From an uncultured virus (IMG/VR IMGVR_UViG_3300025287_000001) (taxonomy: Duplodnaviria > Heunggongvirae > Uroviricota > Caudoviricetes), in IMG/VR virus record IMGVR_UViG_3300025287_000001: a DNA stretch of 64,000 nt. The stretch is one strand, 5' to 3'. The first letter of the stretch is position 1. The number at the start of each line of letters is the position of its first letter. A program made the translations under genes and the position numbers. Of this stretch, positions 59,422 through 64,000 are shown piece by piece. The notes beneath the pieces are model-generated. The model made no database searches and was not told where the DNA came from. It saw nothing but the letters and a program-made list of their open reading frames with translations.

Positions 59422-59766
59422 ATGCAAATCAAAATCCAAAAGTTCGCGACCATCCTCGCAGTCTGCCAGAACCTTCTCTCGACGAGGGACAAGGACAAGG
59501 TAGAAGAGGTGGACGCCGAGTCAACCTCGATCGAAGCAATGCGCCACGCGCGCGCTGTCGGTGAACAGATGGAGAAGGCTCGGGACGCGATGTACCCGAA
59601 CGATCACTACTTCGGTGCGAGGCCTACCCTTGCCCTGAAGGTAGATCCGATCACGAAAGTGGTCAGCCTTGACAAAGACTGCCTCGAAAACAGGGAGACG
59701 CAACGCTTCATCGAGGACCTGAAGAAGCGCCAACCAGAGGCATCGAGGCTCCTCGTCCTGCCTTAA
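59422..59766 (+). CDS. Cassette hypothetical protein
   Basis: GAGG SD; ATG 59422. Confidence 0.75.
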   Translation: MQIKIQKFATILAVCQNLLSTRDKDKVEEVDAESTSIEAMRHARAVGEQMEKARDAMYPNDHYFGARPTLALKVDPITKVVSLDKDCLENRETQRFIEDLKKRQPEASRLLVLP

Positions 59767-59794
59767 TTTCGGAAGCTGTATGGGCTTCTGTTAC

Positions 59795-59846
59795 GCCTCC
59801 CCGGCAACTTCTTGGCATAGTATAGTACAGCCGGGGAGGCAACTTT
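59795..59846 (+). terminator. GC hairpin, possible terminator
   Basis: GCCTCCCCGGC/GCCGGGGAGGC then AACTTTT. Confidence 0.5.
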
Positions 59847-60064
59847 TGGCCCCTTCGGGGGCCGCCCCGCACTCCAAATAATATCAATTAATACCTTGCC
59901 GCAGTAATCAGCGTGCATACATTATAAGTGTCGGAAGGGAGAGGTGGTCTCCCGACCAAAGAAAGTACAGAAAATAGGTTGACCGGACCAGAGCGGTGGT
60001 TAACTTATTAGTAGACAAGGGAAGGATGGTCCTTCTCAACAACCCAACACCAAAAGGTGAAAAA

Positions 60065-60439
60065 ATGAACGCACTCATCAAAAAGTTTATCTCCGAGCAA
60101 CTCCAGAATCTCTTTACGGCGCTTTCTCACGGCGAGAAGCGTGAGATCTACCAGTACGTGATGGCCCAGGGCGTCACGACCAAAGAGGAGATTAAAGAGG
60201 TCTTTGGGGGCGTGAGCGAAGCGACTCACGCAAACCGATTCAATCAACTCAAAGACGCGAACCTCATCACCATCGACGGTGAGGAAGTGACTATTAACCC
60301 CGAGGGCGCGAAAGTCCTGACTGCCTACCTCAACGGTGAGGATATCGCTTCGCTCCTGATGGGCGGCGATAGCGAGGAAACTGCGCCTGAACCTGCGCCT
60401 ACGCAGGACACCTCTGAAGAGGAATGGGGCGAGTTCTGA
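60065..60439 (+). CDS. ArsR-type winged-helix protein, paralog of 57665
   Basis: FTALSHGEKREIYQYV..SEATHANRFNQLKDANLI..AYLNGE. Confidence 0.75.
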   Translation: MNALIKKFISEQLQNLFTALSHGEKREIYQYVMAQGVTTKEEIKEVFGGVSEATHANRFNQLKDANLITIDGEEVTINPEGAKVLTAYLNGEDIASLLMGGDSEETAPEPAPTQDTSEEEWGEF

Positions 60440-60593
60440 ACAACCCTCGGAAGCAGGCATAGCCTGCGACCGGGGCGCGGCCCCCGCCAACCAACAAAAA
60501 ACTCAGAAAATAGCTTGACCCTCAGCCAGCCGTGACTAAAATTAACAGTGAGACGGGGCAAGGGTCCCAAAAAACCAACAGAAAGGAATCATC

Positions 60594-60854
60594 ATGCAGA
60601 TGACAAAGAAACAAGCAGAAAGCCACTTCCGCAGTCAGTATCTCCCGGCTATCCGCGACCGTGAGGAGAACGGCATCGACTACGCGAGGCGGCGAGAAGA
60701 ATGGCACGTCTTCACTGACTATCTCATGAAGTCTCGCCTTATCTCGGAAAGGCAGTACGATACCTGGGTCAGCCCAGGATTTTGCAACCCTTCGCCTCCC
60801 CGCAGCAGCACAGAGCAGAGCACGGCACAAAGCGCCCTTGTTCTAGGGGAGTAA
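60594..60854 (+). CDS. Cassette hypothetical protein
   Basis: AAGGA SD; REEWHVFTDYLMKSRLISERQYDTW. Confidence 0.75.
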   Translation: MQMTKKQAESHFRSQYLPAIRDREENGIDYARRREEWHVFTDYLMKSRLISERQYDTWVSPGFCNPSPPRSSTEQSTAQSALVLGE

Positions 60855-60893
60855 CCCTCATAGACCTGAGCATGTCGAAAAACTGCCTCCTTC

Positions 60894-60967
60894 CCTCCTA
60901 TGGCCTAATTGGTTAAGGCGCACAGCCTATAACTGTGAGTACCTGGGTTCGAATCCCAGTGGGAGGA
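60894..60967 (+). tRNA. trnI: tRNA with anticodon UAU (Ile), atypical C33
   Basis: CCTCCTA/TGGGAGG-A acceptor; CACAG-CCTATAA-CTGTG; CTGGG-TTCGAAT-CCCAG. Confidence 0.75.
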
Positions 60968-61042
60968 TTGCTTGTTACCTTAGAGGCGCTATCCTGCCCG
61001 GATAGTTAAAAAAATGTGCCCCGCCACGGGTCGCGAGCATAA

Positions 61043-61115
61043 GGGCCTATAGCTCAACGGTTAGAGCCCCCGCCTCATAAGCGGTTGGTTCCCGGTTCGA
61101 ATCCGGGTAGGCCCA
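61043..61115 (+). tRNA. tRNA(CAU): Ile2 (lysidine) or elongator Met
   Basis: GGGCCTA/TAGGCCC-A acceptor; loop CTCATAA; canonical D and T arms. Confidence 0.9.
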
Positions 61116-61139
61116 TGACCTTTGACGAGAGAAGAGAAC

Positions 61140-61523
61140 ATGAAATTAAAACTTTCGTACATTGCTTTTGATGGTAGGGGCAACGCATTCCTCTTCAGGG
61201 AATATAGAGGCACCATCGTTAGAACTGGTTGGTTCCCAGCCTTGTTTGATAAGGAAGGTGAGTATCTGGGGATCATCTGGTTGCCTGACCATAAGGGCAA
61301 ACAAAAGCCAATGACTTCGAGTCAGCTTGTGAACATGCTGGCTAACTCTTACCCGAGTGAGTCAAAGGCAAGTGCAGGTTACATAAGAAACGACCCTGAC
61401 TTTGAAAACAATGAGGTCTTCTCCAGAACGAGGATGTACCTTACAAAGGATGATGGATGGCATATCGTTCCTTCTATCGAGAAAGATGGTAAGTCGTATC
61501 TCCTAACAGAGCTTTGGTCGTAA
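61140..61523 (+). CDS. Hypothetical protein
   Basis: ATG 61140; open frame between tRNA genes. Confidence 0.65.
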   Translation: MKLKLSYIAFDGRGNAFLFREYRGTIVRTGWFPALFDKEGEYLGIIWLPDHKGKQKPMTSSQLVNMLANSYPSESKASAGYIRNDPDFENNEVFSRTRMYLTKDDGWHIVPSIEKDGKSYLLTELWS

Positions 61524-61524
61524 C

Positions 61525-61707
61525 ATGAAAATCTTCAAGATTCTCAAGCGATGGACGTGCCGCCATGAATGGGAAACCAAATACGAAAACCACAACGAAA
61601 CTGTTGATTCTGAGTATACTATTAAGGAATGCCCGAAGTGTAACACGAGAGTACATAAGTGCCGGATAGGTGAGTATTACTTTAAAACCTGTAAGGTCAC
61701 GAGATAA
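61525..61707 (+). CDS. Small zinc-binding protein
   Basis: CRHEW..ECPKC. Confidence 0.65.
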   Translation: MKIFKILKRWTCRHEWETKYENHNETVDSEYTIKECPKCNTRVHKCRIGEYYFKTCKVTR

Positions 61708-61803
61708 GGCAAACCCAAAACGTGCTTCCTCTAAAGCCTTTACAATACTATAAGGGGGAGTCAAACAAGCACCCTTAGCTCAGTTGGATAGAGCAACGGT
61801 CTT

Positions 61804-62415
61804 TAAGTAAATGGAGCCTTCTGTGTGGAAGATCGAGAAGATTGTCAGCAAGGGTGATTATGACTATGCAATAGTCAGAGATCATCCAAACAGAACTAAG
61901 AATGATTATGTCTTACACCATCGTGTGGTCGTAGAAAATCATCTTGGTCGCCTTCTCGAATCAAGCGAAGTTGTCCACCATATTGACGGGAACAAGAAGA
62001 ACAACCTGCTCTCAAATCTTGAAGTCATGTCAGTTAGCGAACATGCTAGACATCATGGCCAAGAGATATCAAGGAAGTATGTTGACCTTAAGTGTCCTGA
62101 GTGTGGTAAGGAGTTTATTAGAGAAAAGAATCAGACACATCTTCAAAAAGGGACAAGTTACACTGCTTGCTCTAGAAGTTGTTCCGGTAAATTCTCTAGC
62201 AAAGTCAGGCTAAAGCGCTTATCAACCGCAGAAGTGGAAGCGGCTATATCGGGGAACATCGTAAGAGAATACGACAAGTAGTCTCACGACAATCCCGAGG
62301 TAACTGACGACAATCAGGAACCGTAGAGGCCATACGCCGCTCACCTGAAATGGTGAAGAGATGGTCCAGCCAGCAAGCCTTTGATAAGGTGGTCATGGAA
62401 ACATGATGCTGGATG
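61804..62415 (+). mobile_element. Group I self-splicing intron carrying a homing endonuclease
   Basis: 5' exon ends in U paired to G in P1; P3 GCGGC/GCCGC; P4 TCGGG/CCCGA; P7 GGCCA/TGGTC; P8 TCACC/GGTGA; S-like AAGAGATGGTCC; P9 hairpins; terminal G at 62415. Confidence 0.9.
61811..62281 (+). CDS. Intron-encoded HNH homing endonuclease with C-terminal zinc finger
   Basis: YVLHHRVV..VVHHIDGNKKNNLLSNLEVM..HARHH; CPECGKEF..CSRSC. Confidence 0.9.
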   Translation: MEPSVWKIEKIVSKGDYDYAIVRDHPNRTKNDYVLHHRVVVENHLGRLLESSEVVHHIDGNKKNNLLSNLEVMSVSEHARHHGQEISRKYVDLKCPECGKEFIREKNQTHLQKGTSYTACSRSCSGKFSSKVRLKRLSTAEVEAAISGNIVREYDK

Positions 62416-62456
62416 CTAAACCGTGGGTCGTAGGTTCGAATCCTACAGGGTGCGCT

Positions 62457-62593
62457 TGCTGGTTAGTTTGGAGCTATAGGTTTCTAGAGCCTATACGTTA
62501 CGAGGACAAAAAGGCGAGTGGATTAATTACCCGAGTGCCGAAAAACGCTGTCACTATAAGGCAGAGACGATGGTTCGAATCCATCACCAGCAG
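62457..62593 (+). ncRNA. tRNA-like RNA with ~70-nt structured D-loop
   Basis: TGCTGGT/ACCAGCA acceptor; GTTT/AAAC D stem; CTGTC-ACTATAA-GGCAG; GATGG-TTCGAAT-CCATC. Confidence 0.7.
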
Positions 62594-62595
62594 TT

Positions 62596-62748
62596 GTGAG
62601 CATGTACAAAGCATGGGATTTTAAGTCTATATCAGTAGACTTATGCCAAAACATGGCGATCACAAAAAGTACCAGATCATGATACCCAGTAAGCCTCGTA
62701 GCATTGGATGCGACGGCAAGCTAAGGTGAAAGATGGTCACATGCTCGC
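62596..62748 (+). ncRNA. Candidate multi-branch structured RNA
   Basis: Closing stem GTGAGCATGT/ACATGCTCGC; inner TAAGTCTA/TAGACTTA, GCCA/TGGC, TGGG/CCCA. Confidence 0.55.
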
Positions 62749-62786
62749 CTAGATATCAAGTTGGCTCCTCCTCTTCTCCGGGGGCC

Positions 62787-62824
62787 GCCCCACAGAAGAA
62801 TAAGGCCTTCTGTGGGGCTTTTTT
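62787..62824 (+). terminator. Intrinsic terminator ending the tRNA/ncRNA unit
   Basis: GCCCCACAGAAG/CTTCTGTGGGGC + TTTTTT. Confidence 0.85.
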
Positions 62825-62880
62825 ATTTGACTTTATCTGAACGTGATTACATTAATAGTGTCACCAACTAAGAGGAGAAC

Positions 62881-63567
62881 ATGAAAGCCAAACAACTCTT
62901 TTCTGAACTTCGCTCTATCATGATGAAAGAGGTCAATGATAGGGAGGATATCATTCTCTTGGCGAGGGGACGCAAGCAACTCTTCAGGCAAACCCCAGAA
63001 TATGACTACTACATGAAAGATGTGCCCGGCGTCTTTCTCGATGTCGAGGTGGGAACTGAAGACTGGGGCCTTTGCGAACTCGTCATCACCAACGAGAACG
63101 GTGTCCTTCACTACAACGTGAGGCTTGGAGGCGATGATAAATGGTCCACTAGCACAGAAGTCAAGGAGCTTCCTATTAACAGGATGTGCTTATGGGAGGA
63201 CTTCTGGGAGGTGGCGAAATTCTGGCTTATGGGACCAGAAGAGATCGAATCTTACAACCAAGAGGATATCACTCGCCTAGATCTAGACCTCAAGCATGTT
63301 GAGGATGATTACTGGGAACCATACCCTGGCGAACTTTGCTATGACTACGACCATGGCAAAAGGAAAAAGACATACTACTACTTTACTCATACCAAATTCC
63401 CTTATGAGTACAATAAGAAGTTCTCCCACTTTATGAACGTCTGCACTGCTATCTTTATGCATAACGAAGCAAGCTATGTCTACGAGGTGGATGATTACCA
63501 CCCTGCTTACGAGGCCAGATACAATACACACCCTGCTGACAAGGCTGTGCTTCACAGCGAGCAATGA
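62881..63567 (+). CDS. Cassette hypothetical protein (228 aa)
   Basis: GAGGAG SD after promoter 62827. Confidence 0.75.
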   Translation: MKAKQLFSELRSIMMKEVNDREDIILLARGRKQLFRQTPEYDYYMKDVPGVFLDVEVGTEDWGLCELVITNENGVLHYNVRLGGDDKWSTSTEVKELPINRMCLWEDFWEVAKFWLMGPEEIESYNQEDITRLDLDLKHVEDDYWEPYPGELCYDYDHGKRKKTYYYFTHTKFPYEYNKKFSHFMNVCTAIFMHNEASYVYEVDDYHPAYEARYNTHPADKAVLHSEQ

Positions 63568-63660
63568 CTTATGCCCCTTCGGGGGCCGCCCACCTTTTTA
63601 TATTTTTCCTTGTCTGCACCCGTATAGTGCCTACATTCATATTAACAGAGGAGGAGAGGT

Positions 63661-63834
63661 ATGAAGAACATACCGAAAGAAGCCAAAGATGCCTTTAGGG
63701 AGTACAGGAAACTTCAAGAACAGGAGCGTGAAGACTCCAGAAAGGCCGAGGTGAAAAGACAGGCAGAAATGAAGAGGTTGAAGAGGCTCTTCATGATTCA
63801 CATCAACAGAATGGAAGACGAGAGGTTCGAATGA
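63661..63834 (+). CDS. Cassette charged helical protein (57 aa, not in ORF track)
   Basis: GGAGGAGAGG SD; MKNIPKEAKDAFREYRKLQEQE. Confidence 0.7.
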   Translation: MKNIPKEAKDAFREYRKLQEQEREDSRKAEVKRQAEMKRLKRLFMIHINRMEDERFE

Positions 63835-64000
63835 ACATGTACGCAAAGAAAGTGGCAGATATCATCGCCGCGATCGAAGAGATCCAGGCAAGTGGCAACC
63901 CTATGACCAGAGAAGAAATCTTCTCTCATCTTCGGCTGCATTACAGGGCACTTATAACGCCAATCCAGGCAACCAACATCGCTCAACAGTACGGCAAATG
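63831..64000 (+). CDS. Hypothetical protein (partial)
   Basis: ATGA-coupled start; MNMYAKKVADIIAAIEEI open to window end. Confidence 0.55.
   Translation, partial: MNMYAKKVADIIAAIEEIQASGNPMTREEIFSHLRLHYRALITPIQATNIAQQYGK

Follow-up and report, generated by a model that had tools for sequence, protein, structure and literature searches.

A candidate tRNA-shaped RNA gene of an uncultured marine phage, with two hairpins in place of the D arm and a design like that of phage T4 RNA C

The 137-nt gene and its split tRNA-Arg neighbour

We analyzed a window of 64,000 nucleotides (nt) from an uncultured marine phage (IMG/VR record IMGVR_UViG_3300025287_000001), in which baseplate and PhoH-like genes are present, and focused on a 137-nt stretch of its plus strand, 62457-62593, that has the features of a gene for an RNA shaped like a transfer RNA (tRNA), as judged by sequence, fold and an RNA-library contig reaching to 62569. 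The acceptor 5' strand, UGCUGGU (62457-62463, with U62456 at position -1), forms 7/7 Watson-Crick pairs with the 3' strand ACCAGCA (pairing probability 0.81-1.0), which together with discriminator G62593 occupies 62586-62593; the next bases are TTG, and CCA is not encoded. The T arm, GAUGG-UUCGAAU-CCAUC (62569-62585), has 5/5 Watson-Crick pairs and a canonical T loop. It is preceded by a hairpin resembling an anticodon arm, CUGUC-ACUAUAA-GGCAG (62548-62564), recognized by sequence, with 5/5 stem pairs including one U.G, a 7-nt loop with C33, UAU, A37 and A38, and a 4-nt variable region behind it. U8, A9, G26 and C48 also stand at their usual tRNA positions.

The 82 nt that separate A9 from the anticodon-like stem consist of two hairpins and two A-rich linkers. 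They include two runs of five A residues, and both linkers are unpaired in the minimum free energy (MFE) structure. The hairpin 1 domain (62467-62504), closed by a helix of UUUG (62467-62470) and CGAG (62501-62504), has the core UAUAGGUU-UCUAG-AGCCUAUA (62475-62495), with domain and core present in both the MFE and the centroid structures. It is followed by the first linker, GACAAAAA (62505-62512), then by hairpin 2 (62513-62539), which reads GGCG-AG-UGG-loop-CCG-AG-UGCC with a symmetric AG/AG internal loop and an outer helix of probability 0.79-0.99, and finally by the second linker, GAAAAACG (62540-62547). The entire RNA folds at an MFE of -40.4 kcal/mol (z -2.48), a value reached by 4 of 200 shuffles. 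A preliminary description of this stretch, made from the letters alone, had listed the acceptor, T and anticodon stems, the loop ACUAUAA and the discriminator G, all of which are present at 62457-62593, and the extra hairpins it had placed in the D loop appear in the fold as two stable hairpins. The intact D stem of that description (GUUU/AAAC) found no support in folding: the partition function gives it a probability of about 0, and its AAAC lies within the second linker. Given this value and the presence of UUUG/CGAG in the MFE structure, it is safer to say that the D arm has been replaced than that the D loop carries an insert.

The motif GGTTCGAAYCC, with at most one mismatch, occurs at 7 sites on both strands of the window vs. 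1.28 expected from shuffles, and its five plus-strand sites are three called tRNAs, the 3' exon of a tRNA-Arg gene and the 137-nt RNA. Two open reading frames (ORFs) overlap the 137-nt RNA and match no Pfam or PHROG family at E ≤0.1 (there is one PHROG match, at E 0.22). ARAGORN in default mode leaves the 137-nt RNA uncalled, with no transfer-messenger RNA (tmRNA) there either, and in intron mode forces a parse as tRNA-Arg(tct) with a 50-nt intron. Rfam also leaves it uncalled at the gathering score; the Rfam tRNA model (RF00005) matches 62534-62585 only, with 16.9 bits vs. a cut-off of 29, and up to an E value of 10 there is nothing at the locus besides this partial match, and no ribozyme or intron family. 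When compared with a canonical tRNA, the RNA has the 7-bp acceptor and the 5-bp T stem with a UUCRANY-type loop; a D arm (3-4 bp with a 7-11 nt loop, A14, G18 and G19) is absent, and position 14 is a G. The anticodon stem and loop size are those of a tRNA, and U33 is replaced by C33, which counts for little. The RNA thus resembles an ordinary tRNA, or a tRNA-Ile(UAU), in its acceptor, U8, G26, anticodon geometry, C48, T arm and lack of an encoded CCA, but differs in having no D arm and about 80 nt of extra sequence and in being uncalled by Rfam and ARAGORN.

Two other identities were considered and dropped. In tmRNA and in the bacterial Y-RNA-like YrlA, an acceptor/T-arm module is fused to a foreign domain, and the 137-nt RNA likewise couples such a module with a foreign domain, but apart from the partial tRNA match it has none in Rfam, and none in ARAGORN. 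An amber suppressor was suggested by hairpin 1, for which a 7-nt loop UUCUAGA (CUA) is a possible drawing, and by the acceptor end (U1-A72, G73), which is reminiscent of tRNA-Gln; however, no D arm precedes hairpin 1, and the long ORFs of the window stay open under the standard code.

Immediately upstream is a tRNA-Arg(UCU) gene in two exons on the plus strand (61769-61803 and 62416-62454), which when joined give a 75-nt tRNA-Arg(tct) called by ARAGORN. The exons are separated by an intervening sequence of 612 nt (61804-62415, plus strand), situated in the anticodon loop after U34. The 137-nt gene had been said to start two nt after tRNA-Arg; it does start 2 nt past G62454, but what ends there is the 3' exon only. 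Among the runs listed, the stretch is present in 20 from 17 studies, all labelled marine metagenome (16 DNA and 4 RNA). Over the locus we examined the RNA runs X15, X16 and X18 and the DNA run X14; X15, X18 and X14 have no cover of 62479-62601, a gap that is uninformative. Record 15 of X16 (175 nt, depth 2.6, with 0 other letters) consists of 61783-61803 joined to 62416-62569. In this contig the 612-nt element is absent exactly at its predicted borders, and the contig then runs, jointless, across the 2-nt spacer and both extra hairpins up to the T stem. Because the contig keeps the extra hairpins while the Arg element is gone, the 82-nt body probably stays in the RNA. The idea of a non-canonical intron, raised in the preliminary description, is therefore disfavoured, the only covering RNA contig retaining the insert and Rfam giving no ribozyme or intron match.

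Comparison with T4 RNA C and the search for relatives

Stable RNAs of tRNA shape were already recognized in phage T4 in the 1970s. T4 RNA C (rnaC, 'species 1 RNA') is 139 nt in length (NC_000866, 70908-71046; 1909-2047 of our locus L012), and the T4 gene order is segB (a homing endonuclease gene), tRNA-Arg, rnaD (119 nt) and rnaC. The gene was found in 748 phage records, one of which (H76) annotates it as tRNA-Lys; its place in other T4-like genera is between tRNA-Trp and tRNA-Gly, not after tRNA-Arg. Rfam has no rnaC family, with tRNA-Sec as the best match (17.5 bits). From an alignment of seven diverse copies (L012-L018), RNAalifold gave a 7-bp acceptor, a hairpin of about 65 nt that takes the D position and is closed by a 3-bp stem, the linker AAAAAU, which does not vary, a 10-bp arm capped by a 6-nt loop, a 1-nt variable region and the T arm GGUUCGAAUCC, with compensatory changes among the seven sequences in 22 of 44 pairs. 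In the excerpted text of reviews and papers up to 2025, the roles of T4 RNA C and RNA D are called unknown (PMC3014915, PMC9697503, PMC12685909).

The RNA of our window resembles rnaC in length (137 vs. 139 nt), in the 7-bp acceptor and in the T arm GGUUCGAAUCC, as well as in the structured domain that stands where a D arm would be, the A-rich linker and the anticodon-like arm. The setting is also similar, both genes lying in a tRNA cluster with a spacing of a few nt, and the T4 gene standing at the cluster end, preceded by a homing endonuclease gene and by tRNA-Arg(UCU). Where rnaC has a single long hairpin and a 10-bp arm, two hairpins and an arm of normal anticodon geometry are found in the window RNA, and an alignment of the two bodies yields z -2.1. 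Hence, where the preliminary description could assign no known class, this has to be corrected: the design and genomic setting are those of T4 RNA C, yet the RNA is not a detectable member of its sequence family. As we read the comparison, it is by design of a kind already known in T4 RNA C and unrelated to it in sequence.

Relatives were sought with a covariance model built from the 137-nt RNA alone (R2), and otherwise by scanning for exact patterns. A scan of metagenomes with both acceptor ends gave 11 loci, comprising 5 true copies and 6 chance matches; the five copies are 100% identical to the window across 59457-64000 (61365-62662 in the case of L003). In genome contigs the same pattern had one chance match, in a coding region, and in viral contigs the exact patterns of the 3' end, hairpin 1, the anticodon-like arm with the T arm, and the tRNA-Arg 3' end had 0 matches each. 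The pattern ACTATAA-N13-GTTCGAATC retrieved 6 loci in viral contigs with no convincing relative among them, and BLAST of the 3' 49 nt returned only non-significant matches to tRNA-Met, tRNA-His and tRNA-Tyr. In the 64-kb window, R2 detects 62457-62593 only (175.5 bits), and in the 5 largest contigs of PhoH relatives it has no candidates. A homologue search with a custom covariance model had been recommended in the preliminary description; in the contigs searched, R2 found no relative, and as it mostly picks up ordinary tRNAs, skipping the insert, it is poorly suited to finding family members.

Another pattern, CTATAA-N13/14-GGTTCGAATCC, drawn from the tRNA-Ile of the window and the 137-nt RNA, yielded 83 stretches in viral contigs. 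Among the 80 that were read, ARAGORN called 12 as tRNA-Ile(tat), all with C33, 15 as tRNA-Tyr(ata) and 5 as tRNA-Pro(ggg), and left 48 uncalled. A tRNA-Leu-like family (A4; loci within L107-L186) accounts for 29 of these 48, with 21 distinct sequences of 117-146 nt. In its layout, a 7-bp acceptor and a D arm of Leu type (GGCGGAAUUGGUAGACGC) are followed by hairpin A, the linker GGG-UAAAAAA (GGGUAAAAAA), a variable hairpin B, hairpin C (GGUCA-CUAUAA-UGGCAG), CCC and the T arm, and the variable domain is branched; compensatory changes are seen in 11 of 30 pairs, and an extra hairpin lies within the D loop in 10 of the 21 distinct sequences. Hairpin A has the loop AUGGUUAUAGCA and allows a drawing in which a 7-nt loop, GUUAUAG (U33, UAU, A37), tops a 6-bp stem containing an A bulge. 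Short members score up to 38.7 bits with the Rfam tRNA model, and nothing in isolate phages matches the family.

The window RNA shares with this family the tRNA shape, the silence of ARAGORN (0/29 called) and the order of hairpin A, A-rich linker, hairpin B, hairpin C and T arm. Hairpin C is nearly identical (CUGUCACUAUAA-GGCAG, i.e. CUGUC-ACUAUAA-GGCAG, in the window vs. CUGUCACUAUAAUGACAG in L186), with six of these letters (CUAUAA) and the T loop being imposed by the search pattern. By contrast, the Leu-type D arm, the loop AUGGUUAUAGCA, the GGG/CCC helix around the variable domain and the discriminator A of the family are all absent from the window RNA. The model of the Leu-like family (R3) gives the window RNA 20.7 bits (E 6.6e-4), with the window's own tRNA-Leu, tRNA-Ile and tRNA-Met scoring higher at 31.4, 27.0 and 21.4 bits. 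Body alignments with the window RNA were non-significant for members L186 and L171 (z 1.4-1.5) and L150 (z 0.72), and likewise for the separate locus L101 (z 2.1). Judging from these sequence comparisons, a tie between the window RNA and the viral tRNA-Leu-like family is possible.

Locus L101 (388-503, minus strand) and L104 (389-490, minus strand) are tRNA-shaped viral sequences of 100-116 nt that ARAGORN leaves uncalled. Both carry ACUAUAA 13 nt ahead of GUUCGAAUC, and in L104 there is also a D arm of Leu type. L101 begins with GGCAGGU-GU-GGAGC and reads AAAACU-ACUAUAAGG, vs. AAAACG...ACUAUAAGG in the 137-nt RNA.

Possible roles of the 137-nt RNA

Considering the locus as a whole, we judge it probable on balance that 62457-62593 is a real gene for a processed, tRNA-shaped phage RNA that retains its hairpins, does not decode and follows the design of T4 RNA C. 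The RNA would be transcribed together with the phage tRNA genes, from a promoter-like site near 60515 to a terminator at 62787-62818, and would be excised by the tRNA-processing enzymes of the host. RNase P recognizes stacked acceptor and T helices, and it could cut between U62456 and U62457; the same cut would free the 3' end of tRNA-Arg for trimming. The 3' end would then be trimmed and CCA added after G62593, an addition that the host has to supply for all tRNAs of the window since none of them encodes CCA. In this scheme, the intact acceptor stem and T arm would act as a handle for processing and stability, while the two hairpins and two A-rich linkers (about 80 nt) would remain in the mature RNA in place of a D arm. 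The weaker step is the last one, namely that the RNA would read no codon and would, as a tRNA look-alike, bind a tRNA-recognizing factor or else present its hairpin domain to a partner. Among the readings offered in the preliminary description, we prefer the tRNA mimic and the scaffold.

Several observations weigh against this view. First, the RNA-library support comes from one contig of low depth (2.6) in one run; the short side of its joint, at 21 letters, is below the advised 30; the joint could reflect an allele free of the element rather than splicing; and contigs reveal neither RNA ends nor processing nor abundance. Second, no diverged homologue was found and the five DNA copies are identical, so that they offer no variation from which covariation or selection might be read. 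Third, a covariance model of the seven rnaC family members (R1; 141 positions, 44 pairs) matches the window RNA in its T arm only (62569-62585; 8.2 bits, E 0.51), with ordinary tRNAs scoring alike, and the likeness to T4 is therefore one of design only. Finally, the anticodon-like arm is canonical in its geometry, with a 5-bp stem and a 7-nt loop followed by a variable region of 4 nt; among the Ile codons, AUA ranks first in the 29 genes below 52 kb (31.7 per 1000, vs. 6.8 beyond), where a second AUA reader would be useful; and C33 combined with UAU is found in 12 of the 80 viral loci, all called tRNA-Ile(tat), so that C33 alone is no argument against decoding.

The alternative that survives best, albeit an unlikely one, is that of a relic: a transcribed but functionless remnant of a tRNA gene that was rearranged, partly duplicated or broken by an insertion, and that is carried along beside a homing element. 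The RNA is indeed an orphan, with no relative in viral contigs, in isolate phages or, save for the one chance match, in genome contigs, and hairpin 1 with its 5' flank (GGAGC-U-AUAGG-UUUCUAG) reads as the 3' strand of a D stem followed by an anticodon arm, hinting at a fusion or duplication. It also starts 41 nt from the homing-endonuclease element, and the flanks of homing elements are co-inherited with the element, as described for T4 SegB in the portion of the paper available (PMC2330249). However, all stems of the RNA are intact, including acceptor strands that lie 130 nt apart and match 7/7; no target-site duplication or terminal repeats flank the insert, which is not repeated in the window (best other match 11 nt), and the same design is under selection in T4-like phages.

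Less probable still, in our view, is a functional second AUA tRNA (UAU) with an expanded D region, employed for the AUA-rich late genes. Besides the codon use and the anticodon-like arm, this reading is favoured by the canonical geometry of the acceptor and T arm and by the loop letters CUAUAA, six including C33, which are common to the tRNA-Ile(UAU) of the window (1319 of 20000 shuffles reach this match). Published work on aptamers in tRNA frames, in the part of the paper accessible to us (PMC5397188), cuts both ways: an aptamer of about 100 nt in the variable (V) loop was active in E. coli, which counts for a decoding tRNA, but stable expression was not obtained when E. coli tRNA-Tyr carried one in its D loop, which counts against it. 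According to the relevant part of another paper (PMC9976931), bacterial Ile identity rests strongly on A73 and the anticodon, with C4-G69 and C29-G41 as minor elements, and on G16, D20 and D21 of the D loop. The 137-nt RNA has UAU but also G73, U4-A69, G29-C41 and no D loop, and thus departs from the Ile set, whereas the ordinary tRNA-Ile(UAU) of the window does carry A73, C4-G69 and C29-G41. Moreover, the D stem-loop with A14, G18 and G19 is missing, with G at position 14, the Rfam tRNA score falls short of the cut-off as given above, and a normal tRNA-Ile(UAU) is already provided 1.5 kb upstream.

A more specific and quite tentative proposal, to which we would give little credence at present, is that of a multi-loop decoy: on a tRNA frame, which the cell would process and keep, the RNA would display look-alikes of the anticodon loops of two phage tRNAs and thereby divert an anticodon-loop nuclease of the host, or an enzyme that binds such loops, from disabling those tRNAs. 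The loop region of hairpin 1, UUUCUAGAG, has UUCUA in common with the anticodon loop of tRNA-Arg(UCU), a match reached by 896 of 20000 composition-preserving shuffles; together with the CUAUAA of the third hairpin it suggests such a display, each match alone being only at about the 5% level. The two tRNAs that would be protected, tRNA-Arg(UCU) and tRNA-Ile(UAU), read AGA and AUA, which rank first among the Arg and Ile codons in the late genes (27.5 and 31.7 per 1000). If the decoy were true, the same logic could explain T4 RNA C and other tRNA-shaped phage RNAs.

We consider it quite improbable that the locus is a tRNA gene with a novel intron in the D region, the removal of which would yield a tRNA of about 60-75 nt. 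The neighbouring tRNA-Arg does have an intervening sequence, the insert is compact and structured, and extra sequence in a tRNA-shaped gene is also what known tRNA introns present (group I introns in bacterial anticodon loops, and archaeal bulge-helix-bulge introns at non-canonical sites). In the 137-nt RNA, however, the extra sequence lies in the D region, belongs to no Rfam ribozyme or intron family at E ≤10 and is kept in the sole RNA-library contig, from which the Arg element is gone; its removal would leave no proper D loop (GG..GA only). The promoters and terminators of the window are of bacterial type, and to our knowledge the archaeal splicing endonuclease is not known from bacteria. 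Lastly, a DNA-level element, in which near-palindromic hairpins would serve as sites for a dimeric protein, recombination or an endonuclease, is suggested by the 6-nt palindromes in the loops of hairpins 1 and 2 (centres TCTAGA and ATTAAT) but is scarcely credible, as it leaves the perfect acceptor stem and T arm unexplained and the stretch sits within a transcribed tRNA unit.

Returning to the view of a processed, non-decoding RNA, we have here an orphan from an abundant marine phage in which the design of T4 RNA C would have arisen with unrelated sequence, as would also apply to the viral Leu-like family. Together, the window RNA and this family suggest that phages have a general class of such RNAs, so far unannotated, which may borrow the tRNA-processing machinery. 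Since the anticodon-like loop is shared with the phage's own AUA-reading tRNA, the choice between decoder, decoy and scaffold is directly testable.

The transcription unit and its phage

The 137-nt gene belongs to the last transcription unit of the window, which contains tRNA-Ile(UAU), tRNA-Met, two small ORFs, the split tRNA-Arg, the 137-nt RNA and a further structured stretch. By sequence, the unit appears to start at a promoter-like site at 60515-60542 and to end at a plus-strand hairpin resembling an intrinsic terminator, with 12 pairs (8 of them G-C) and a T run (62787-62818). The ordinary tRNA-Ile(UAU), at 60894-60967 and about 1.5 kb upstream of the 137-nt RNA, scores 63.2 bits in Rfam and, with the loop CCUAUAA, has a C at position 33, where U is near-universal; its nearest isolate relative, a tRNA-Ile of cyanophage P-RSM6 (84% over 63 nt), has U33. 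The further structured stretch (62594-62760, plus strand) is non-coding, lies between the 137-nt RNA and the terminator and is the positional counterpart of T4 rnaD. It folds at an MFE of -50.5 (z -4.25), with 0 of 200 shuffles equal, a long-range 10-bp helix closes the whole stretch, and it has no match in Rfam. The motif GGUGAA-AGAUGGUC is common to this stretch and the 3' part of the Arg element, a likeness of only 14/15 nt that was equalled in 2 of 200 shuffles.

The intervening sequence in the phage tRNA-Arg gene is interesting in its own right. It is preceded by U and ends in G, contains an ORF for an HNH endonuclease (61811-62281, plus strand; Pfam HNH_3, E 4e-13) and is kept in 5/5 metagenome DNA contigs of the phage. 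The Rfam group I intron model finds nothing in it at E ≤10, and as a control the model detected all three T4 introns, at 105, 40 and 36 bits. The stretch AAGAGAUGGUCC in its 3' part resembles the J8/7-P7 element of group I introns. Our literature search found no publication on an intron in a phage tRNA gene, and a 2014 review, in the excerpt consulted, places every phage intron then known in protein-coding genes (PMC3984707).

With regard to the phage itself, a metagenome contig of 630,638 nt holds three identical copies of the region (L004, L006, L008) at spacings of 185,127 and 185,083 nt, which indicates a phage genome of about 185 kb; the contig looks like a concatemer-like assembly of that genome. 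BLAST of the region and of 20 kb against isolate phages detected no relative at the DNA level, only a 40-nt match to tRNA-Arg. Relatives based on PhoH are merely about 40% identical, and a 414-residue protein of the structural module has no match among isolate phages. The 228-residue protein downstream has no relative in viral contigs and a single one, 98% identical, in a large protein set.

The G+C content of the window jumps near 52 kb from about 39% to about 50%, and beyond this point the window becomes a series of units, each with a promoter, a small ORF and a terminator, along with tRNA genes. Codon use per 1000 is ATA 31.7, AGA 27.5 and TTA 15.5 in the 29 genes below 52 kb and ATA 6.8, AGA 13.1 and TTA 9.3 in the 12 genes above it; the phage tRNAs Leu-UAA, Ile-UAU and Arg-UCU match exactly the codons preferred by the low-G+C structural genes. 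As a separate observation from the viral contigs, ARAGORN identified on one of 9 kb (L102, 237-534) a permuted tmRNA with the tag peptide EKFEYELAA.

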